A stretch of DNA of 64,000 nucleotides from Pseudomonadota bacterium (GTDB lineage: Bacteria > Pseudomonadota > Gammaproteobacteria > Burkholderiales > Burkholderiaceae_B), in contig JAEXOO010000042.1 in assembly GCA_023439305.1 (NCBI GenBank), forward strand, positions 43,321 to 107,320, written 5' to 3'. Positions 9,917 to 54,782 of this stretch are shown here, piece after piece (positions within the stretch are counted from its first letter, which is position 1; every line of letters starts with the position of its first letter). The position numbers were made by a program, and so were the translations under genes. Below the pieces are notes generated by a model. It did no database searches, had not been told where the DNA came from, and saw only the letters and a program-made list of their open reading frames with translations.

Positions 9917-10064
9917 ACCCAAAGCAGTCCATCCGTAAAAGTATCGATTGCTTTATATGTAAACAAAAAATACGAATAGCTACAGGAAAATTCAAATTCA
10001 GCGCTTCATGCAAAAAGGGCACAAGACCCGAAGCGCCATACCAAGCACATCAAGAGGAGACTTC

Positions 10065-10937
10065 ATGAAATACCTACGCCCTACCCTGATCGCTTCCGCT
10101 ACCCTGGCCGCCACCCTGGCTTCACACTCGCAGGCCGCCACCTGGAGCGACAACTTTCTGGGCTACCGCTACAGCTCGGCCTACACCGAGCCCATGAATG
10201 ATCGCGACATCGAAAAGCACATCCTGAGCTTCACGCACGTCAGCGGCTACAGCCTCGGCCAGAATTTCTTCAACCTGGACATCCTGCAGTCCGACCGCCA
10301 CGACCCGTCGAACGGCAGCAAGAACAACGGCGCCACCGAGTTCTACGCCACCTATCGCCATCAACTGTCTCTAGGCAAGACGTTCGACAAAAACCTGGCA
10401 TTCGGCCCCGTGAAAGATGTGGCGATCACAGCTGGCTTCGACCTGAATACCAAGAACACCGCCTTTGCACCGCGCAAGCGCCTGCTGGTGGTGGGCCCGA
10501 CCTTCAAGTTCGACGTGCCCAAGGGCTTTGTCGACCTGAGCCTGTTGTACGGCAAGGAATGGAACCACTGCGGCCTGGGCGCACCCGCCTGCCCGGACAG
10601 CAAAATCTCCTTTGATTCCCAGTTCATGGCCAGCCTGGCCTGGAACATTCCGTTCGACGCAGGCGCCCTGCCGCTGAAGTTCCAGGGTTTTGCCAACTAC
10701 AACGGCCCCAAAGGCAAGGACTATGCCGGCATCAGCACCAAGTCTGAAGTCTTAGTGCGCACCTCGCTCATGGCCGACGTGGGCAAGCTGGCCTTCGACA
10801 AGAAAAACACCCTGTGGGTAGGCGTGGGCTACGAATACTGGCACAACAAGTTCGGCAACCGCTATATGGCCAATGGCAACGTCAAGCCTGGCATCAAAAC
10901 CAGCGCGCCGACCGTCCAGGTCGAATTCCACTTCTGA
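10065..10937 (+). CDS. Outer-membrane beta-barrel channel, Tsx/OmpK-like
   Basis: Signal peptide MKYLRPTLIASATLAATLASHSQA, alternating beta-strand pattern, EYWHNKFG, and C-terminal ...VEFHF (terminal Phe). ATG at 10065 follows GAGGAG. The ORF-track start at 10008 is probably too far upstream. Confidence 0.6.
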   Translation: MKYLRPTLIASATLAATLASHSQAATWSDNFLGYRYSSAYTEPMNDRDIEKHILSFTHVSGYSLGQNFFNLDILQSDRHDPSNGSKNNGATEFYATYRHQLSLGKTFDKNLAFGPVKDVAITAGFDLNTKNTAFAPRKRLLVVGPTFKFDVPKGFVDLSLLYGKEWNHCGLGAPACPDSKISFDSQFMASLAWNIPFDAGALPLKFQGFANYNGPKGKDYAGISTKSEVLVRTSLMADVGKLAFDKKNTLWVGVGYEYWHNKFGNRYMANGNVKPGIKTSAPTVQVEFHF

Positions 10938-17391: not shown

Positions 17392-17793
17392 ATGAGAGAC
17401 ACGAAGGCCCTGACGCTCGATGACGCCAAACGTATCGCCGCCGCTGCGGAAGCTGAAGCCCTGAACAACAACTGGGCAGTCAGCATCGCGATCTGCGACG
17501 CCGGCGGTCACGCCCTCTGGATGCAGCGCATGGACGGCGCGCCCCTGATGAGCGCCAGCGTTGCCCCGGAAAAAGCCCGCACCTGCGTGCTGAGCGGCAA
17601 GCCCAGCAAAGTCTACGAAGACATGGTCAACAACGGACGCATTGCCGCCCTGGCCATGCCCGTGGTTCCCCTGGAAGGCGGAGAGCCTGTGGTGGTGAAC
17701 GGCCTGGTAATCGGCGCCGTCGGCGTGTCCGGCGTGAAAGCCGGTGAAGACGCCCAGGTCGCCCGCGCCGGCGTGTCCGCCCTGACTGCCTGA
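17392..17793 (+). CDS. glcG: GlcG/HbpS-like (DUF336) protein
   Basis: 133 aa. Has the typical AVSIAICDAGGHALW...GAVGVSG pattern. Confidence 0.8.
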   Translation: MRDTKALTLDDAKRIAAAAEAEALNNNWAVSIAICDAGGHALWMQRMDGAPLMSASVAPEKARTCVLSGKPSKVYEDMVNNGRIAALAMPVVPLEGGEPVVVNGLVIGAVGVSGVKAGEDAQVARAGVSALTA

Positions 17794-17810
17794 CCCCGCA
17801 AGGACAACAC

Positions 17811-19238
17811 ATGAAACGTCAACGTCAATCCCGCATCCTGGCTACGCTGGGCCCTGCCAGCTCCACCCCGGAGCGTATCCGTGAACTGTTCGAGGCCGGC
17901 GCCGATGTGTTCCGCCTGAACTTCAGCCACGGCACGCACGAAGACCACGCCGCCCGCTTCCATACGATCCGCCAGATCGAAAAGGAAACCGGACGCACCA
18001 TCGGCATTCTGATGGATCTGCAAGGCCCCAAGCTGCGCGTAGGCAAAATGAAAGATGGCCGTGTTCAACTGGAAACCGGTCAGAAATTCCGCCTGGACCT
18101 GGACTCGGCCGAAGGCGACAGCACCCGCGCCTACCTGCCTCACCCAGAAATCTTCGCCGCTCTGGAAAACGGAACCGACCTGCTGCTGGACGACGGCAAG
18201 CTGCGTTTGCGCGTCGACAGCTTCGGCCCTGATTTCGCTGAAACCACGGTCATGGTCGGCGGCCCGCTGTCCGATCGCAAGGGCGTGAACGTCCCAGGCG
18301 TGGTGCTGCCTATTTCCCCTCTGACCGAAAAAGACCTGATCGACCTGAAATTCGGCCTGGAGCTGGGCGTGGACTGGGTGGCCCTGTCGTTCGTGCAGCG
18401 CCCCGGCGACATCCGCGAAGCGCGCGAGATCATCGGCGACAAGGCCTGGATCATGGCCAAGCTGGAAAAGCCCCAGGCCCTGGACCACCTGGAAGAAATC
18501 GTGCATCTGTGCGATGGCGTCATGGTCGCCCGTGGCGACCTGGGCGTGGAAGTGCCCCCTCAGCGCGTGCCCGTGCTGCAACGCCAGATCGTGCGCACGG
18601 CACGCGCTGCCGGCCGCCCGGTCGTTGTGGCCACGCAAATGCTGGAATCCATGATCACCTCGCCCGTGCCTACGCGCGCCGAAGCCTCCGACGTGGCCAC
18701 AGCCATCTACTCGGGCGCCGACGCCGTCATGTTGTCGGCCGAATCCGCCTCGGGTCAGTTCCCGCTTGAAGCCGTCTCCATCATGGACAGCATCATCAAG
18801 GAAATCGAGAACGATCCCAGCTGGCGAGCCATCCTGGAAGCCAACCACAGTTCAGCCGAAGCCACCACGGCAGACGCCATCTGTTGCGCCCTGCGTCGCG
18901 TGGCCAGCATCCTGGAACCGGCTACCACGGTAGCCTACACCACGACCGGCTTCAGCGCCCTGCGCGCCAGCCGCGAACGGCCCACTGCACCCATCCTGGC
19001 ATTGACGCCGCGCCTGGAGACCGCTCGTCGCCTGGCCCTGGCCTGGGGCGTGCATGCGATTCCTTGCGAAGACGTCAGCGACCTGACCGAAATGATCGAT
19101 CACGCCATCGACGTGGCCGTGCGTCACGACTTCGCGGCAGGCGGCGACACCATCGTCATGATCGCGGGCGTGCCTTTCGGCAACAGCGGCAAAACCAACT
19201 TGCTGCATGTAGCCACGGTACCCGGCGCCAAAGCCTGA
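17811..19238 (+). CDS. pyk: Pyruvate kinase
   Basis: 475 aa. Motifs ILATLGPAS, FRLNFSHG, LQGPKLRVG and MVARGDLGVE are present. Confidence 0.9.
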   Translation: MKRQRQSRILATLGPASSTPERIRELFEAGADVFRLNFSHGTHEDHAARFHTIRQIEKETGRTIGILMDLQGPKLRVGKMKDGRVQLETGQKFRLDLDSAEGDSTRAYLPHPEIFAALENGTDLLLDDGKLRLRVDSFGPDFAETTVMVGGPLSDRKGVNVPGVVLPISPLTEKDLIDLKFGLELGVDWVALSFVQRPGDIREAREIIGDKAWIMAKLEKPQALDHLEEIVHLCDGVMVARGDLGVEVPPQRVPVLQRQIVRTARAAGRPVVVATQMLESMITSPVPTRAEASDVATAIYSGADAVMLSAESASGQFPLEAVSIMDSIIKEIENDPSWRAILEANHSSAEATTADAICCALRRVASILEPATTVAYTTTGFSALRASRERPTAPILALTPRLETARRLALAWGVHAIPCEDVSDLTEMIDHAIDVAVRHDFAAGGDTIVMIAGVPFGNSGKTNLLHVATVPGAKA

Positions 19239-19255
19239 TTGTTCCGGCCGTGGCT

Positions 19256-19292
19256 ACAGCACACTGCCCGCCGCGTGCGGGCAGTGTGCTGT
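19256..19292 (+). terminator. Perfect 16-bp GC-rich hairpin after pyk
   Basis: ACAGCACACTGCCCGC-CGCGT-GCGGGCAGTGTGCTGT. Only a weak T-tract follows. Confidence 0.55.
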
Positions 19293-19387
19293 TCAAAGGT
19301 ATGGAGCGGACATCGGCGCATGCTGCCTGCCAACAGGACGCCTGCTGCGCACTGAGCCTGGAAACGAAAGAGTTGAATCCGGCACGC

Positions 19388-19542
19388 AAAAAAAAACCCG
19401 AGATCAAGAGATCTCGGGCAAATCCACCAAAGGAGGAGGGTGGAGGAGACAATCGTGGCATGTCGGGCTACTAGATGAAGTATCGAGCCAGAAAGCTAGG
19501 GTAATTACGGTTGTTTTTCCCGCTTTCTTTTCGACATCCGAT
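19388..19542 (-). ncRNA. Candidate trans-acting sRNA with a tandem CUCCUCC (anti-SD) motif
   Basis: The minus strand has a terminator: CCCGAGAUC-UCUU-GAUCUCGGG (19418-19397) plus U9 (19396-19388). A preceding hairpin, UCCACC (19444-19439) with GGUGGA (19428-19423), has the loop CUCCUCCUUU. A promoter-like element lies upstream. There is no credible ORF. The 5' end is inferred only. Confidence 0.45.
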
Positions 19543-19548
19543 AACTGA

Positions 19549-19577
19549 AGTGTATCTACAAAATTTGTGCAATGCAA
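19549..19577 (-). promoter_or_regulatory. Sigma70-like promoter for the candidate sRNA
   Basis: On the minus strand: TTGCAT (19577-19572), 17-nt spacer, TACACT (19554-19549). Confidence 0.35.
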
Positions 19578-19723
19578 GATAAATACACGACAGCCCGCAT
19601 GAACCAAGAAGTTGTGGCGTTAACGCATCATTTCCTAGCGCAAATAAGGCCACAGGTATCTAGTCGTTATCCCTAAGCCTCCAAATCATTACCAGCAAGC
19701 CTCTCCGTCCCGCACAGAATCAA

Positions 19724-19750
19724 TAAAAAAAACCGCCCTCAGGCGGTTTT
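19724..19750 (-). terminator. Intrinsic (bidirectional-looking) terminator after coq7
   Basis: AACCGCC-CTCA-GGCGGTT hairpin flanked by A9 on the left (a U-run on the minus strand) and T4 on the right. Confidence 0.8.
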
Positions 19751-19775
19751 CCTATTAAAGACCGCCAGCACAAGC

Positions 19776-20444
19776 CTACAGACGATAAGCGGTGGTAGTC
19801 ATGACCTTGGACATGAAACGCATTGCGGTCTTGATAGGCGGTGGCAGTCCTGCCGCACCATTATGTTCGGCCGTACGACGGTGTTCGATTTCGTCATCGC
19901 GCATTTGCTCGACAATGCGACGGGAACGCGCATCCGACTCGGGCAGGGACTGCAGGTGGCTTTCCAAATGCTCTTCGACCTGACGTTCGGTCTCGGCCAT
20001 GAAGCCCATGTTGTAGGGAACGCCCGCTCGGCTGGCCAGCAGACCCAGGGCGAATGAGCCGGCATACCACAAGGGATTGAACACGCTTGGTCGGCTGTCC
20101 AGCTCGCGCAGGCGGTCGTCGCACCAGGCCAGGTGGTCGACCTCTTCCTGGGCGGCATGCAGCAGTACCTTGGTCGCCGTGGGATCTTTGCACAGCATGG
20201 CCTGGCTGCGATATAGGGCTTGGGCGCAGATCTCGCCCACATGGTTCACGCGCATCAGACCGGCGGCATGGCGTGATTCTTGCGGCGTAATGTCGGACAC
20301 TTCCTTGCCGGCCGGATTGGGGCGCGACGCGCGAGCCGAGCGGCCCAGCACATCCAGCGCACGGTTGGTTTCGGTCAGGAATTGGTCAAACAGGCTGTTG
20401 CGCCGATGCAGGCGGGCGCTGCCGGCAGGAAGGGAACGGTTCAT
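19776..20444 (-). CDS. coq7: Demethoxyubiquinone hydroxylase (di-iron Coq7)
   Basis: 222 aa from ATG 20444 (MNRSLPAG...). Di-iron carboxylate motifs are NHVGEICAQALY, EEVDHLAW, ETERQVEEHL and DDEIEHRR. The track ORF extends further upstream, which is implausible. Confidence 0.85.
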   Translation of the reverse strand: MNRSLPAGSARLHRRNSLFDQFLTETNRALDVLGRSARASRPNPAGKEVSDITPQESRHAAGLMRVNHVGEICAQALYRSQAMLCKDPTATKVLLHAAQEEVDHLAWCDDRLRELDSRPSVFNPLWYAGSFALGLLASRAGVPYNMGFMAETERQVEEHLESHLQSLPESDARSRRIVEQMRDDEIEHRRTAEHNGAAGLPPPIKTAMRFMSKVMTTTAYRL

Positions 20445-20476: not shown

Positions 20477-21115
20477 TTATTGCCGCAAAAAGGCCATCAC
20501 GGCCTTGATCTCGGCCAAGAGCCAGAACAGAGGCAGCACGCAGGCCATCACCACCAGGCCTATGCCGGCGATTTCCTGGTCGGACTGCAAATAGAAGTTG
20601 CACAGGCGAGCAGGGTTCTCGACGTACAACAGGCCGACAATGGCCATCATCCAGCAAAAATTGCCCAAGAAGAACAGGCGGAACACCAGATGTGCGCGCC
20701 GCCAGGACTCCATGAACAGCATGCCCATCAAGACCAAGCCCACATATTTGCCCAAGGCCAAGGGCGTGGACACCAGCACATCGTCCAGCGCCTTGGGTAC
20801 CATCCAGTAAGCAGCGGCGAAACTGACGAGGATCAGGCCAGGCAGACCGTATTCGTTCAGGGCGTAATAAGGACGCAGCAAGGCCTGCATGACAGGGCCG
20901 CGTCCAGCTCCTTGAAAGCTCAGGGCCAACTGCAAAACGATGCCCGACAAGACCAGCAAGGGAATGTGCACCAGCATGTGCAGACTCATCAGGGCCGTCA
21001 ATGGGCGGTCCCAGTAGGCGGCGATCGCAAACAGCAGCGCAGCCAGCAGCGCCAGGAGACTACCCAGATAGGGCCGCAGACGACGGGGCGCGGGGGAGAC
21101 TCGCAACTGGATCAT
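20477..21115 (-). CDS. Polytopic membrane protein, possibly a CtaG(caa3)-like oxidase assembly factor
   Basis: 212 aa with about 6 TM segments. The SLHMLVHIPLLVLSG motif resembles the HMxxH motif of Bacillus-type CtaG proteins. Overlaps the SCO gene by 4 nt. The functional call is tentative. Confidence 0.5.
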   Translation of the reverse strand: MIQLRVSPAPRRLRPYLGSLLALLAALLFAIAAYWDRPLTALMSLHMLVHIPLLVLSGIVLQLALSFQGAGRGPVMQALLRPYYALNEYGLPGLILVSFAAAYWMVPKALDDVLVSTPLALGKYVGLVLMGMLFMESWRRAHLVFRLFFLGNFCWMMAIVGLLYVENPARLCNFYLQSDQEIAGIGLVVMACVLPLFWLLAEIKAVMAFLRQ

Positions 21116-21744
21116 TGCTTCGCCTCGGTTTGAAGCTCCAAGGCCTGGCGCGCATAGGCCAGGGCCAGGAGAGGCTCGCCATAATCCACAATGCGGCCCA
21201 GGCGGGGCTCAGAGGTGACGACATGATAGGCGGCATTGTGCTCGTATTCGTCGAACGGCGCAGGAATCACAATAATGCCGAAATCGTCCAGAACCCGTTG
21301 TCGCTCTTCTCCGGGAGCCATCGTGACAAATTCCCAGACGGCAGGATCGGCTTTCATGGAATGACCGTATCGTTGCAGGCGATCGGCCGAATCCGAGGGG
21401 TCGAAACTGATGCTGAGCAGTCGCACTTTATCTTGCAAACCCTGGTCCAGAATCGCTTGCTGCAGCTGCTGATACTCTCCGCCCATGGCCAGGCACAGGG
21501 TGACGCAGCGAGTATAGATGAAGTTTACGATAGCGACTCGCCCATCCTGGTGCAGGACATCGTGCAGGCTGCGAGTGCGATTGGAGGGCGTAATGACCGA
21601 CACATCGGAAATGAGTCGGGGCGAGGCGGCCACGTCATTGCGACGGGCCGTCTCGGCGGTCAGTGCAGAGAAGCCCTGCGTCAAGTGCGCCAGCGCCCCG
21701 ATACCCAGGAGACACACCAGCACAATACTTGCCAGGAGCTTCAT
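21112..21744 (-). CDS. SCO1/SenC-family thioredoxin-fold copper chaperone
   Basis: 210 aa. N-terminal anchor, NFIYTRCVTLC (CxxxC), and a downstream His (EYEHNAAYHVV), in an oxidase context. Confidence 0.75.
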   Translation of the reverse strand: MKLLASIVLVCLLGIGALAHLTQGFSALTAETARRNDVAASPRLISDVSVITPSNRTRSLHDVLHQDGRVAIVNFIYTRCVTLCLAMGGEYQQLQQAILDQGLQDKVRLLSISFDPSDSADRLQRYGHSMKADPAVWEFVTMAPGEERQRVLDDFGIIVIPAPFDEYEHNAAYHVVTSEPRLGRIVDYGEPLLALAYARQALELQTEAKQ

Positions 21745-21765
21745 GCCTGACCTCTCAGTACAACT

Positions 21766-22365
21766 TTACTGTTCCATGGGAGCCAGGTCGGCGTCGCCAT
21801 TCCAGTGATCGGTCTTTTCAGCGGTTTTTTCACGTTCAGCTTTGACAAAGGCCTCATCCACAGGATCGGCGCTGTTGTCACCCAATTCAGTACGCAGGTA
21901 GTTTACGACAGCCGTCATTTCCGCGTCATTGAACTTCTCGCGGAACTCGGGCATGGCGCCATTGTACTTGTTGCCCTTGACCGTGAGCTCACCCGTGATG
22001 CCGTGCAGCAGAATCTGGACCAGCACTTCAGGCTTGCGCAGCACCCACTCGGAACCGACCAGAGGAGGGAATACGCCTGGAATACCGGCACCCGTAGCCT
22101 GGTGACAGGCGGCGCACTGAGCGACGAACAACTGGTGGCCGTCGATCTTGCCACCCTCTGCGCCTTCAGGGGCCTTGAAGTCGGCCGCAATGCGGTTGTC
22201 GCCCACAGTGGCGTCGTGGCTCAGGTCGCTGCTGAATATATAGTAGATGCCCCACAGGAACAGGCCTGCAATGATCAGCAGAACCACCCAGGGCACCGGC
22301 GCCGCATTCTCTTCCGGATCGGCATTCTCGCGCAGTTGCGCGTCGTACTTGTGTTTGTCAGTCAT
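21766..22365 (-). CDS. Membrane-anchored monoheme c-type cytochrome
   Basis: 199 aa. One TM segment (VPWVVLLIIAGLFLWGIYYIF), a single CAACH heme motif, and distal-ligand context NGAMPEF. Confidence 0.8.
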   Translation of the reverse strand: MTDKHKYDAQLRENADPEENAAPVPWVVLLIIAGLFLWGIYYIFSSDLSHDATVGDNRIAADFKAPEGAEGGKIDGHQLFVAQCAACHQATGAGIPGVFPPLVGSEWVLRKPEVLVQILLHGITGELTVKGNKYNGAMPEFREKFNDAEMTAVVNYLRTELGDNSADPVDEAFVKAEREKTAEKTDHWNGDADLAPMEQ

Positions 22366-22420
22366 TCTAATTCTCCGATGCGCCCCGTCTGCCGGGGCGC
22401 ATTAGCTCGACAGTGCCTGA

Positions 22421-23011
22421 TTATTTGAGAACGCTGGCTGGCGATACGGGATACGTACGGTCCAGCGCCAACAGGTATTGCACCAGGTCCAGGGCCTCTG
22501 GCTTGGCCACGACCACCTTGCCTTCCGGAGCAAAGGCGCCGGGCAGGTTGACGACCTTATCGCCGGCCTCGGCCTTGTCCTTGAGTTCGAACATGAAGGG
22601 GTAGGCGGGCATGTTGCTGCCGGGCGTATAGGCGCGCGGCTGGTACAAGTGGCCCAGGTGCCAGTCCACGCTGGGCTGACGGGCGCCGATGTTCATCAGG
22701 TCCGGACCTGTGCGCATCGTGCCCAACAGGTGGGGCGTGTCGTAGTAGTAGTCGCCGGCCACAGAGGCGCGACCCCAGCCACGCTGGAAGTCAGGCGCCT
22801 GGTTCTGGCTGCGCGGCTGCTGCGAGTGACAGTACACACAGCCCATGTTGATGTACTGCTGACGGCCACGCAGCTCAACGCTGGTGTAAGGCTTCAGGCC
22901 TTCGGAAGGCTGCACCTTTTCGACTTGCAGATAAGGGATGACGACCAGAGCCGAGGTGGCCAGGGCGAGCGTCACCATGGCGCCGCCCAACAGTTTGTAT
23001 TCGCTTTCCAT
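22421..23011 (-). CDS. ccoO: cbb3-type cytochrome c oxidase subunit II (CcoO/FixO-like)
   Basis: 196 aa. N-terminal TM segment, MGCVYCHSQQPRS heme motif, and GPDLMNIGAR. Confidence 0.85.
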   Translation of the reverse strand: MESEYKLLGGAMVTLALATSALVVIPYLQVEKVQPSEGLKPYTSVELRGRQQYINMGCVYCHSQQPRSQNQAPDFQRGWGRASVAGDYYYDTPHLLGTMRTGPDLMNIGARQPSVDWHLGHLYQPRAYTPGSNMPAYPFMFELKDKAEAGDKVVNLPGAFAPEGKVVVAKPEALDLVQYLLALDRTYPVSPASVLK

Positions 23012-23018
23012 GACTAAA

Positions 23019-24674
23019 TCAGGCCTCCACTACATTGCGAGTTGCCGAGCGCTGGTGAAACAGGGCTGGACCAATACGACGGCTGCCATAGCGCAGAGCC
23101 ATTGCCACAAAGTGGAAGGCAAACACAAGGTGGCCCAGGGTCATCAGACCGCCACCCAGAGAACGCGATTTCAGGTAAGGCATCGTGACAAAAACGGATT
23201 CCATGAAGGGCTTGGCGGCATCCAGCATGGCCAGGCCTTGCAGCCAGCCGCCGATGCTCAGGCCCACGGCGTAGATGCCGAAGCCGACCACCACCAGCCA
23301 GAAGTGCAGGGAGATCAATTTGGGGTAAGGCCATTCCCAGGACATGACGCGAGGCATCACGTAGTAGATCGCGCCGAACATCACCACGGTGAAGAAGCCG
23401 TACAGACCGATGTGGGCGTGGGCGACCGTGAAGTGGGTGAAGTGGGTGATCGTGTTGATGCTGCGCAGGGCCTCAAAGGAACCCTGGATGGAACTGACGG
23501 TGTACATCATGCCGCCCAGCACGATGAAGCGCAGCGTGGGCGAGTGGATCAGGGTGCGGAAGTGACCCTTCATGGTGTAGTGCTGGTTGATGGAGAAGGC
23601 CAGCACGGGAATGATCATCATCATGCTTTGCACGATGGACAGAGTGACCATCCACTGGGGCACAGGACCGCCGACCAGGTGGTGACCGCCGACCTGGCCG
23701 TAGAAGAACGCCAGACCCCAGAAACCCACCAGAGACAGGTTGTAGGAGGCAATTGGACGACCGATGATCTTGGGCAGGAAGTAGTACACCGAGGCCAGCG
23801 CCATGGGCGTGTAGAACAGGCCCAGCACGTTGTGGCCGAACCACCAGTTCATGGTGGCTTGCTCGACGCCTACGTGCACGGCGGGCAGGTTGCCGACCAG
23901 GAACAGGATGGGGAACCAGAACAACGCAGCGCCCATATACCAGACGGACACGTACAGGTGGTGCGTGCGGCGGTTCTGCAGGGTGAACACCAGGGGCAGA
24001 GCAGCCATAGCGCCGCCGATCACCATCAGGATGTCGACCTGCCAAGGCATTTCCAGCCATTCCATGCCATCGGTGATGCCCACGGCGATGCTGCCCAGGC
24101 CGGCGATCAGGCCGGCATTCCACAAGGCGCCGCCCAGGATGGCGAAACGAGCGCCGATCAGAGGCGTCTTGAACAGGCGAGGCAACATCCACATGGCGAC
24201 GCCGAAGGCCGCCATGGGCGCCCAGCCGTAGGCCACAGCGTTCAGGTGCAGCGTGCGCATGCGGCCAAAGGTCATCCAGGCCTGCTGAACCAGGAAATCG
24301 GGCTCGTGCAGCTTGATCGAGCTGATCAGACCCGCCGTGGAGGCGACGATCAGCCAGACGACGGCACAGGACAGGAACATGAAGGTGACGTAGGCGGAGG
24401 AGCGGTCCGCTTCCACGCGTTCAGCCAGTTCCACGCTGAGCGTCTGACGATCTTCGGCCGAAATGGCCGTCTGGCCCATTTCCTTTTGCAGCGCCAGGCG
24501 CTGTTCAGGGGTGGCGGAGGGATCGTCCACTTGGCCGATTTCGCCCTTGGAGAAGATCTCCTTGGCGGCGGCCGGGCTGTCGTCGAAGAAATTGCGGCGT
24601 AACGACCAGATGAAGACAAAGAGTCCTGTTACGGACAATATGAAAGCTAGAAGCAGTATTGAAACGGTATTCAC
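23019..24674 (-). CDS. ccoN: cbb3-type cytochrome c oxidase subunit I (CcoN) with an N-terminal CcoS/FixS-like domain
   Basis: 551 aa with a GTG start. Residues 1-33, (M)NTVSILLLAFILSVTGLFVFIWSLRRNFFDD, match the CcoS/FixS pattern (TM + FxW..R...(F/Y)DD). A roughly 60-aa hydrophilic linker follows, then the CcoN core (LISSIKLHEPDF, WWFGHNVLG, HFTVAHAHIGLYGF). Confidence 0.85.
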   Translation of the reverse strand: MNTVSILLLAFILSVTGLFVFIWSLRRNFFDDSPAAAKEIFSKGEIGQVDDPSATPEQRLALQKEMGQTAISAEDRQTLSVELAERVEADRSSAYVTFMFLSCAVVWLIVASTAGLISSIKLHEPDFLVQQAWMTFGRMRTLHLNAVAYGWAPMAAFGVAMWMLPRLFKTPLIGARFAILGGALWNAGLIAGLGSIAVGITDGMEWLEMPWQVDILMVIGGAMAALPLVFTLQNRRTHHLYVSVWYMGAALFWFPILFLVGNLPAVHVGVEQATMNWWFGHNVLGLFYTPMALASVYYFLPKIIGRPIASYNLSLVGFWGLAFFYGQVGGHHLVGGPVPQWMVTLSIVQSMMMIIPVLAFSINQHYTMKGHFRTLIHSPTLRFIVLGGMMYTVSSIQGSFEALRSINTITHFTHFTVAHAHIGLYGFFTVVMFGAIYYVMPRVMSWEWPYPKLISLHFWLVVVGFGIYAVGLSIGGWLQGLAMLDAAKPFMESVFVTMPYLKSRSLGGGLMTLGHLVFAFHFVAMALRYGSRRIGPALFHQRSATRNVVEA

Positions 24675-52999: not shown

Positions 53000-53217
53000 G
53001 AAAAATTGCACAATCTGATGCACTTCCATCAGATAAAGTTAGCTCCGTAACGCCGACAACAATAACGCAGAATGGGCCTGCCGGAGACACAAGAACGTGA
53101 TGCCTGACCGGCGCCTGCCGGCTGGCCACGCTGAAGCGCTGCATCGCCCCGGCGATGCACGCGTCCTTTCCATGTGAACCAAGAAAACGCGCCGATACAG
53201 GCGTGGAGGAGACGGCT

Positions 53218-53346
53218 ATGTCCGAATACGGCCTGGCAATTTTCATTTTTGCCCTCGGGGCGGGAACCTCGCTGCTGCTGGTGGGGTACATCATGCGCAA
53301 CTACTTCCGCTACAAGCGTGAAGACGGCATCGTCAAGGAGCAGTAG
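53218..53346 (+). CDS. Small single-TM protein upstream of the SSS transporter
   Basis: 42 aa: MSEYGLAIFIFALGAGTSLLLVGYIMRNYFRYKREDGIVKEQ. A strong GGAGGAG RBS precedes it, and it ends 2 nt before the transporter ATG. Confidence 0.5.
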   Translation: MSEYGLAIFIFALGAGTSLLLVGYIMRNYFRYKREDGIVKEQ

Positions 53347-53348
53347 CC

Positions 53349-54782
53349 ATGGAGACGACTTTCATTTCTCCCGGCCTGGCCCTGGCTATCATCGGACTGA
53401 TGTCCGTGATGATCCTGGGCTTCGGCGTCTACGTGAGCAAGCGCCACGTCAAGAATGCCAACGACTTCCTGTATGCAGGACGCAATGTGGGTCTGGCGCT
53501 GGGCACGGCTACGCTGGTAGCGGCCTGGATCACGGGCAACACCACCATGGCCGCTCCCGAGCTCGCCTATAACGTGGGCCTGATCGGCTCGCTGGCCATC
53601 AGTACCATGGGCTTGTCGCTGGCCATGTTCGCCCCCTTGGCCAGCCGGATCAAACGGCTGATGCCCCAGGGCTATTCCAGCGGCGAATTCATCCGCCGCC
53701 GCTACGGCGACCTGGCCTGGAAACTGTACTTGGTCCTGGCCGTGTACTACTTCCTGGGTTTTCTGGTGACGCAGGCCATGGCCGGCGGCATTTTGCTGCA
53801 GGCGCTGTCGGGGGTGGACTACAAGATCGGCATGCTGACCATCATGGCCGTCTGCACCTACTACACCCTGAAAGGCGGCCTGAAGGCCATCCTGGCCACC
53901 GACTTCCTGCTCAGCCTGATCATTCTGGGCACGCTGTTCGCGGTAGCCGCCTGGTCCTACTGGAATTTCGACCTGAGCCAGATCTATACCCAGACCGCCG
54001 AATTGCGTCCGTCCACATTGAACATCCTGACCGCCGCCGGCCTGATGTTCGTCGGCGGCAACTTCCTGTTCGGCTGCGGCGAGATCTTCCATAGCAACAT
54101 CTGGTGGCAGCGCGTCTATGCCTCCAGCGAACGCACGGCATCGCGCTCCTTCGTGCTGGCCGGCCTGATCTGGTTTGCCGTACCCATCGTGGCCGGCTCT
54201 CTGGCGTTCATCGCCATCAGCCAGAAGTACAGCATCCCCCAGGTGAACATGATTTTCCCCGTCGTGGTGTCCCAGATCATGGGCGCAGGCGGAGCCGTGC
54301 TGGTGCTGATCATCATCTACGCCGCCCTGGCTTCCACCGTCAGCTCGCTGCTGACCGGCGCCGCCGGCCTGATCGTCAATGACATTTATCGTGGCGTGAT
54401 CAATCCCCAGGCCAGCGATCAGACGGTACAACGCTACGTGCGCTACGCCATCATCGTCCTGGCGATCGTGACCGCCGCCATTGCCTGGAACCCCTACGAA
54501 TCCATGTACCTGGTGCTGCTCTTGACCGGCCCCGCCGTGGCCGCCATGATCTGGCCCATCGTCTTCGGCATCTATACCCGCGAAACCAATCAAAGCTCGG
54601 CCTTCTGGGCGATGCTGCTGGGCACCGTCGCCGGACTGGCCGCCTACTTCTGGATTTCGCCCTACGCCGCCGCCATCGTGTCGGCCGTGCTCTCGGGACT
54701 GGTGGTCTACCTGAGCACCTTGATGAATCCGAATCGCGCCTTCCAATGGCGTCAACTGGACCACGAGCCTGCCGGCCGCTAA
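53349..54782 (+). CDS. Sodium:solute symporter (SSS) family transporter
   Basis: 477 aa with about 13 TM segments. DFLYAGRNVG is a typical SSS N-terminal motif. The substrate is not inferable from the sequence. Confidence 0.9.
   Translation: METTFISPGLALAIIGLMSVMILGFGVYVSKRHVKNANDFLYAGRNVGLALGTATLVAAWITGNTTMAAPELAYNVGLIGSLAISTMGLSLAMFAPLASRIKRLMPQGYSSGEFIRRRYGDLAWKLYLVLAVYYFLGFLVTQAMAGGILLQALSGVDYKIGMLTIMAVCTYYTLKGGLKAILATDFLLSLIILGTLFAVAAWSYWNFDLSQIYTQTAELRPSTLNILTAAGLMFVGGNFLFGCGEIFHSNIWWQRVYASSERTASRSFVLAGLIWFAVPIVAGSLAFIAISQKYSIPQVNMIFPVVVSQIMGAGGAVLVLIIIYAALASTVSSLLTGAAGLIVNDIYRGVINPQASDQTVQRYVRYAIIVLAIVTAAIAWNPYESMYLVLLLTGPAVAAMIWPIVFGIYTRETNQSSAFWAMLLGTVAGLAAYFWISPYAAAIVSAVLSGLVVYLSTLMNPNRAFQWRQLDHEPAGR

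Follow-up and report, generated by a model that had tools for sequence, protein, structure and literature searches.

A member of the betaproteobacterial small RNA family RF02278 in the coq7–pyk gap of an Alcaligenes-like genome

Identity of the RNA encoded between coq7 and pyk

The gap between coq7 and pyk in the DNA analysed here (64,000 nucleotides, called the window below) raises the question of whether it holds an RNA gene of its own and, if so, of which kind. A previous interpretation drawn from the letters alone (the sequence-only reading) had placed there a minus-strand, translation-blocking small RNA (sRNA) with anti-Shine-Dalgarno motifs. The gap is framed by the following features.

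17811–19238, plus strand: pyk (Pfam)
19726–19753, minus strand: terminator of coq7, separating coq7 from the sRNA promoter (terminator scan)
19776 to about 20408, minus strand: coq7 (Pfam PF03232, E = 1.9e-46)

The GC content of the gap is 0.43–0.48, against 0.60–0.70 in its flanks. The coq7 gene ends at 19776 and the core of the RNA starts at 19450 on the same strand, the sRNA lying directly downstream of coq7. The pyk stop codon is closely followed, before the sRNA terminator is reached, by a long GC-rich inverted repeat with a stem of ~16 bp (19256–19292), which is not a canonical intrinsic terminator because it has no U-run on either strand. On the other side, the coq7 neighbourhood (21112–24674, minus strand) looks rich in respiratory genes as judged from translations; the ORF at 21766–22365 (minus strand) has a CxxCH haem-c motif, and a 551-aa membrane ORF at 23019–24674 (minus strand) resembles haem-copper oxidase subunit I.

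An Rfam scan of the whole 64-kb window gave RF02278 ("Betaproteobacteria toxic sRNA") as the sole match at the gathering threshold (19389–19451, minus strand; 65.8 bits, cut-off 50; E = 5e-11). The alignment covers the full model (positions 1–64 of 64) with both hairpins and the CU-rich stretches visible, and only one copy of the family is visible in the window. The sequence-only reading had been reminded of the 'toxic small RNA' family and had called for a covariance-model test; the full-length match answers it in the affirmative. Together with a promoter homologous to that of Bordetella pertussis S17 (see below), the match also supports the broader proposal of a minus-strand anti-Shine-Dalgarno sRNA. 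The parts of the RNA are located as follows, all on the minus strand.

19388–19452: putative mature short sRNA (about 65 nt), counterpart of the short form S17S of S17 (RF02278 match, S17S alignment)
19442–19452: seed 'Site 1', UUGUCUCCUCC, at the 5' end (fold of short form)
19448–19442 and 19438–19432: CUCCUCC heptamers (sequence)
19444–19439 / 19428–19423: hairpin 1, 6-bp stem UCCACC/GGUGGA (sequence, folds)
19438–19429: hairpin 1 loop, CUCCUCCUUU, 10 nt, 'Site 2' (sequence, folds)
19388–19419: intrinsic terminator with a 10-bp stem (terminator scan)
19418–19397: terminator CCCGAGAUC-UCUU-GAUCUCGGG (sequence)
19409–19406: terminator loop UCUU, 'Site 3' (sequence)
19396–19388: U9 tail (sequence)

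All elements that had been listed before were found again at their coordinates when 19100–19850 was read on the minus strand, and the terminator was called independently by the terminator scan. The double-hairpin architecture of RF02278, a hairpin with a pyrimidine-rich loop followed by an intrinsic terminator with a U tail, is seen in the folds, in the RNAalifold consensus, and in the terminator scan. The CU-rich stretches typical of the family (PMC5688073) are also present, with UUGUCUCC unpaired at the 5' end and CUCCUCCUUU in the loop. In the fold of the short form, the first 8 nt of Site 1 are single-stranded and the last 3 belong to the hairpin stem, and the RNA folds with a z-score of −4.4 against shuffles. 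The host is betaproteobacterial, the flanking Pyk and Coq7 sharing 93% and 89% identity with their counterparts in Alcaligenes pakistanensis; among the matches listed, A. pakistanensis and A. phenolicus are the nearest genomes (Pyk, 93%; Coq7, 86–89%; DNA, about 82%), which assigns the window to an Alcaligenes-like organism within the Alcaligenaceae. The heptamer CUCCUCC is not over-represented in the window (5 occurrences against 8.1 expected), and the weight of the identification is carried by the covariance-model match and by conservation, not by the motifs themselves.

Three other families scored below their gathering cut-offs: RF02877 (Neisseria NmsRb/RcoF1/NgncR_163; 38.7 bits, cut-off 52), RF02837 (Burkholderia anti-hemB; 27.3 bits, cut-off 49.5), and RF02866 (Burkholderia ncS16; 22.2 bits, cut-off 48). 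Of these, the RF02877 RNAs NgncR_162/163 (NmsRa/b, RcoF1/2) are likewise Hfq-binding betaproteobacterial sRNAs, which use a single-stranded region and the loop of a stem-loop to occlude the ribosome-binding sites of metabolic and transport genes and so repress them, but they have three stem-loops, tandem siblings, and another seed sequence; the RNA in the window is related to them in design and is not a member of their family.

The exact 27-mer core (19450–19424) was found in at least 120 genome stretches, its carriers among the matches listed being Alcaligenaceae, Cupriavidus, Ralstonia, Pandoraea, Paraburkholderia, Limnobacter, and other Burkholderiales. It also occurs downstream of a coq7 fragment in a contig labelled as a Sphingomonadaceae MAG (JBLMWT010000194.1, locus L030), probably owing to contamination during binning and not to a copy of alphaproteobacterial origin. 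Conservation was assessed on an alignment of 31 coq7-linked Alcaligenaceae loci, and base pairs were counted in 28 long-form sequences, all among the matches listed. Across the 31 loci, a 33-nt core is invariant and is preceded by TGCC, which is invariant or nearly so. Hairpin 1 is invariant in all aligned loci and thus shows no covariation, the loci having been selected by exact match to it. In the 28 sequences, 5 of the 10 terminator pairs show compensatory changes with 99.6% of cells paired, and overall pairing extends to 98.8% of cells, compared with 47% at most for slid partners.

Linkage to coq7 is the rule in these relatives. Among the matches listed, 89 loci have at least 1500 nt of upstream flank, and 56 of these carry a same-strand coq7 no more than 1.5 kb upstream; the median gap, taken for the full set of 71 coq7-linked loci, is 332 nt. 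A convergent pyk downstream is confined, among these matches, to Alcaligenes and Paenalcaligenes. The unit had been described as an orphan: it stands as an independent sRNA gene, whereas the word orphan does not fit a linkage kept so widely. Within the Alcaligenaceae, the linkage is broken in a Pelistega MAG (L072), in which coq7 is downstream on the opposite strand, and no coq7 is within reach in Oligella (L015), Verticiella (L023, L109), and Pigmentiphaga (L066); Verticiella and Pigmentiphaga retain the promoter and the ATCGGATGTCGAAACG leader despite the missing linkage.

Altogether, the coq7–pyk gap holds a small regulatory RNA of the already described betaproteobacterial family RF02278, of which it is an ordinary member; the feature is real, almost certainly functional, and of a kind already known.

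Likeness to Bordetella pertussis S17

The sRNA S17 of B. pertussis, which adjoins coq7 (BP3152), has been characterized by 5'-RACE, TEX treatment, an rne-ts strain, and Hfq co-precipitation (PMC11722255, Sim et al., bioRxiv 2024). Its sigma-A promoter (TTGCAT, 17 bp, TACTAT) gives rise to an RNA of 190 nt (S17L), whose start was mapped by 5'-RACE to the A of ATCGGATGTTGAAACG in the construct sequence. RNase E cuts S17L, as demonstrated in B. pertussis and in Escherichia coli, to the stable, Hfq-associated S17S of 67 nt, the 5' end of which is the first U of UUGUCUCC (pS17S construct) (PMC11722255).

The locus in the window shares with S17 a same-strand coq7 as its upstream neighbour, the −35 hexamer TTGCAT with its 17-bp spacer, a predicted transcript start ATCGGATGT... 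with the +1 leader ATCGGAUGU, the two-hairpin layout with the U9 tail, and a cleavage-site sequence compatible with RNase E. S17S starts with TTGTCTCCTCC, and its counterpart in the window runs from 19452 onward; the two short forms are identical at 60 of 66 positions, including all of the first 33, so that the 5' region with Sites 1 and 2 is 100% conserved. The long form would be about 155 nt here against 190 nt in S17, and the interior of its 5' domain is unrelated in sequence. In addition, the −10 hexamer is TACACT rather than TACTAT, the terminator loop ('Site 3') is UCUU rather than GCAA, so that any Site 3 pairing would differ, and the downstream neighbour is pyk rather than a glycosyltransferase gene. 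The linker is 1 nt shorter (UUUG against UUUAG in S17), by which the stop codon of a putative 32-aa ORF is lost. BvgAS control is specific to Bordetella.

The family is also represented in Burkholderia cenocepacia by four copies, ncS03, ncS05, ncS27, and ncS62, described as 'double-hairpin RNAs' of 57–92 nt (PMC4603805, PMC5688073), with which the RNA in the window shares a full-length match to RF02278 above the gathering score. The Burkholderia copies differ in being present at 3–5 per genome, in being mostly short transcripts of 57–67 nt, in a few changed core nucleotides, and in not being reported to adjoin coq7. It is very probable that the RNA in the window belongs to RF02278 ('toxic small RNA' or double-hairpin RNA) as a trans-acting, probably Hfq-dependent sRNA, and that it corresponds to S17 by synteny.

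Predicted promoter, precursor and processing

The elements upstream of the core are listed below, all on the minus strand.

19577–19572: −35 hexamer TTGCAT (sequence)
19565–19578: conserved promoter box CTTGCATTGCACAA, containing TTGCAT (sequence and 31-locus alignment)
19554–19549: −10 hexamer TACACT, 17 bp after the −35 hexamer (sequence)
19542: putative transcription start, A of ATCGGAUGUCG (homology only)
19453–19542: 5' precursor domain of about 90 nt, closed by a long-range helix (alignments, minimum-free-energy fold)
19532–19539: 5' arm of the closing helix, GGAUGUCG (pair counts)
19457–19465: 3' arm of the closing helix, CGACAU-G-CC, including the conserved AUG of a 101-aa ORF (pair counts, minimum-free-energy fold)
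19452–19453: putative RNase E site CGA/UUGUC, with the cut between A and U (homology)

A generic sigma-70 scan returned no promoter site, both hexamers falling below its thresholds with 3/6 and 4/6 consensus matches by hand count. The pattern TTGCAT-N17-TANNNT occurs once in the window against 0.16 expected. In the 31 Alcaligenaceae loci among the matches listed, CTTGC of the −35 region and the GCA just after it are invariant (31/31), as are the T and A at the first two positions of the −10 hexamer, and its last T is nearly so. From A19542, seven nucleotides after the −10 hexamer, the window reads ATCGGATGTCGAAAAG, and its counterpart in S17L, ATCGGATGTTGAAACG, lies at the same distance; aligned at +1, the two are identical at 13 of 14 positions. 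The transcript start ATCGGATG is invariant in the same 31 loci, and the leader GGATG is invariant or nearly so. The arrangement TTGCAT-17 bp-TAnnnT with +1 at ATCGGAUG thus matches the mapped elements of S17 in sequence, and the promoter picked out by the sequence-only reading turns out to be the homologue of the mapped sigma-A promoter of B. pertussis. By this analogy, the candidate promoter is probably active as a housekeeping-sigma promoter.

Around the −35 hexamer, a longer conserved box, cTTGC(A/G)TnGCA(n)CAA, was observed, which in some lineages takes the form TTGC-N6-GCAA, a partial inverted repeat. A similar box was seen by eye in copies from distant Burkholderiales, such as Cupriavidus, Ralstonia, Pandoraea, Paraburkholderia, and Limnobacter, some of the copies being without coq7 linkage, and a common upstream motif was mentioned for the B. 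cenocepacia copies by Sass et al. (PMC5688073). The box may be an operator for a shared regulator.

Downstream of the start, the interior of the 5' domain varies in sequence and length, with indels, among the 31 loci listed. Its two ends can pair in a long-range helix, which is contained in the minimum-free-energy fold of the 155-nt transcript of the window. When RNAalifold was applied to the long-form alignment, hairpin 1 and the terminator were all that it predicted, the closing helix being absent, and explicit pair counts were used for this reason. In the 28 sequences among the matches listed, 96.8% of the cells of the closing helix are paired, against at most 47% in slid controls, and two pairs show compensatory changes (CG 18/UA 8/AU 1 and UA 22/UG 4/AU 1/CG 1). 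We mark the helix as inferred, because it was spotted by eye in the same sequences that were used for scoring, which favours it in the controls, and because the minimum-free-energy fold of B. pertussis prefers a different pairing over it. The stretch noted earlier as roughly 100 nt of AU-rich RNA (roughly 90 nt here) is more than AU-rich and appears to form a structured precursor domain closed by a covarying helix.

By homology with S17, the primary transcript would run from 19542 to 19388 (roughly 155 nt) and would be processed by RNase E to 19452–19388 (roughly 65 nt). The cleavage context CGA/UUGUC, predicted to be single-stranded after the helix, fits cleavage by RNase E. Applied to Bordetella genomosp. 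12, the same procedure yields a predicted long form of 189 nt, compared with 190 nt measured in B. pertussis. Again by homology, the active species would be the processed RNA of ~65 nt and not the transcript of ~150 nt foreseen in the sequence-only reading.

A different origin of the short RNA deserves consideration, namely that a promoter immediately preceding the core drives synthesis of the ~65-nt form, in which case the 5' domain and the distal promoter would be unrelated to it or dispensable. Processing is indeed not universal in RF02278, because ncS03, ncS05, and ncS62 of B. cenocepacia are transcripts of 57–67 nt with start sites determined by dRNA-seq, for which a processing site is not reported (PMC4603805, PMC5688073); ncS27 is processed to a shorter form (PMC5688073). 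For the locus in the window, however, the scan finds no promoter-like site; the distal promoter, +1, and leader are invariant across the 31 loci listed and match the mapped start of S17L, and compensatory changes accompany the pairing of the leader with the stretch that immediately precedes the core. Since the short form is also sensitive to TEX in B. pertussis (PMC11722255), direct synthesis is very improbable here, and we retain the processed precursor.

Proposed mode of action and alternative accounts

Based on the relatives, the following course of events is proposed. The housekeeping-sigma promoter TTGCAT-17-TACACT would start transcription at about A19542, and with termination at the U9 run of the intrinsic terminator the precursor would measure about 155 nt. 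The helix 19539–19532/19465–19457 would close the 5' domain and leave ACGA/UUGUCUCC single-stranded next to hairpin 1, and RNase E would cleave between ACGA and UUGUCUCC to release a stable RNA of about 65 nt (19452–19388), which is likely to associate with Hfq as S17S does. Its free 5' end UUGUCUCCUCC and the loop CUCCUCCUUU resemble the anti-Shine-Dalgarno end of 16S rRNA and would base-pair, on selected mRNAs, to ribosome-binding sites of the GGAGGAG(AC) type, so that initiation of their translation would be blocked. In the relatives studied, the targets are mainly transporters and catabolic or regulatory genes. In the S17 deletion mutant of B. pertussis, 92 genes rise, and for 70 of these the ribosome-binding site or its vicinity is complementary to Site 1 or Site 2; the direct repression of the sigma-54 activator BP2158 through Site 1 was demonstrated by compensatory mutations (PMC11722255). 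By analogy, it is most likely that the sRNA in the window blocks ribosome-binding sites of transporter and metabolic mRNAs.

Pairing of this kind could also be unselective, so that the RNA would act as a general toxin, a mimic of the 16S anti-Shine-Dalgarno sequence that titrates Shine-Dalgarno sequences globally and halts growth. The family owes its name to RNAs first noticed as toxic when cloned in E. coli, as quoted in PMC4603805 and PMC5688073, overexpression of ncS27 slows growth while an antisense RNA to its CU-rich region has the opposite effect (PMC5688073), and in our own reading the loop CACCCUCCUCCUUU resembles the 3' end of 16S rRNA. Growth inhibition is not universal among these RNAs, E. 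coli BL21 having tolerated S17S without toxicity (PMC11722255). Against a global effect, the 70 of 92 genes changed upon S17 deletion carry specific Site 1 or Site 2 matches (PMC11722255), and the growth effect of NcS27, which co-regulates carbon source use, is limited to certain substrates. General toxicity is thus very improbable, and a selective regulator remains the preferred reading.

Local candidates for such regulation were sought by exact seed complements, because a duplex-energy ranking over crude ORF starts proved noisy and was abandoned, its top matches being spurious GC-rich antisense ORFs. Long antisense ORFs of this sort, e.g., one of 411 aa opposite pyk (17613–18848, minus strand), arise as a by-product of high GC content. 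For the Site 1 complement GAGGAGAC, 3 occurrences were counted in the window against about one expected by chance, namely in the sRNA gene and before two plausible start codons. At 10054–10067 (plus strand), GAGGAGAC lies 3 nt before ATG 10065 of a 290-aa protein whose N-terminus looks like a signal peptide and whose C-terminal residue is phenylalanine, and which resembles an outer-membrane protein. At 53205–53220 (plus strand), the 9-nt match GGAGGAGAC, a motif listed for several S17 targets (PMC11722255 supplement), lies 4 nt before ATG 53218 of a 42-aa hydrophobic, membrane-type peptide directly ahead of a Na+/solute symporter gene (53349–54782). Neither candidate target protein has a family in Pfam or NCBIfam. 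The two starts are plausible local targets, on the basis of matches of 8–9 nt. Of the three other GGAGGAG sites in the window, only that at 53205 precedes a start codon; those at 24396 and 63480 were rejected as ribosome-binding sites because both are inside long ORFs. A search for a homologue of BP2158 found no sigma-54 activator signature GAFTGA in the window.

The position directly downstream of coq7 on the same strand, which recurs in most relatives, would also be expected if the element were not an independent gene but a conserved terminator or 3'-UTR element of coq7 (or of the convergent pyk) made by read-through. This is highly improbable, as a strong coq7 terminator precedes the sRNA promoter, the promoter itself is conserved, and copies of the core that are not near coq7, each with a promoter-like box of its own, exist in Cupriavidus, Ralstonia, Pandoraea, and Burkholderia; S17, moreover, is transcribed in vitro from its own promoter (PMC11722255).

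The notion that the locus instead encodes a small protein (the 101-aa ORF at 19156–19461, the 67-aa ORF at 19404–19607, or an S17-type peptide of 32 aa), the RNA features being incidental, can be put aside: although most relatives have an ATG at 19461 and the S17 authors noted a possible 32-aa ORF in S17L (PMC11722255), the two nearest Alcaligenes species carry TTG in place of the ATG and reach a stop in this frame after 18 codons, the ORF of other loci spans 18–158 aa and has unrelated sequence past the core, none of the three codon positions varies within the core and synonymous changes are absent from it, the 101-aa frame runs through the terminator, and the overlapping ORFs have no Pfam or NCBIfam family. 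The frame of the B. pertussis type, which is a different one from that of the 101-aa ORF, has an ATG in only 6 of the 31 loci among the matches listed, and in the window it has an upstream stop, no ATG, and, through the 1-nt deletion, no TAG stop. The conservation of AUG 19461 is attributed to its pairing in the closing helix and not to coding. The sequence-only reading would have yielded to a 101-aa ORF conserved as a protein, which the frame interrupted in the nearest Alcaligenes does not bear out.

Meaning for the organism and the family

For the source organism, the analysis places a member of a curated sRNA family in an Alcaligenes-like genome, which by itself adds little that is new, and provides a ready annotation together with testable target candidates. 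For the family, the S17 design, with a coq7-linked promoter, a long precursor, and a processed anti-Shine-Dalgarno RNA of 65 nt, would extend across the Alcaligenaceae. The covarying helix at the processing site, the family-wide promoter box, and the lack of conservation of the S17 peptide are of comparative value. As far as the available portions of the published descriptions extend, the covarying closing helix by the cleavage site, the box overlapping the −35 hexamer, and the coq7 linkage across several families go beyond them. One may speculate, although we consider it rather unlikely, that these features together reflect one transcription factor and a conserved maturation module shared by the family, with a tie to respiratory or quinone status. 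If this were true, the sRNA would be a regulator of transport and catabolism tied to the respiratory or quinone status of the cell.
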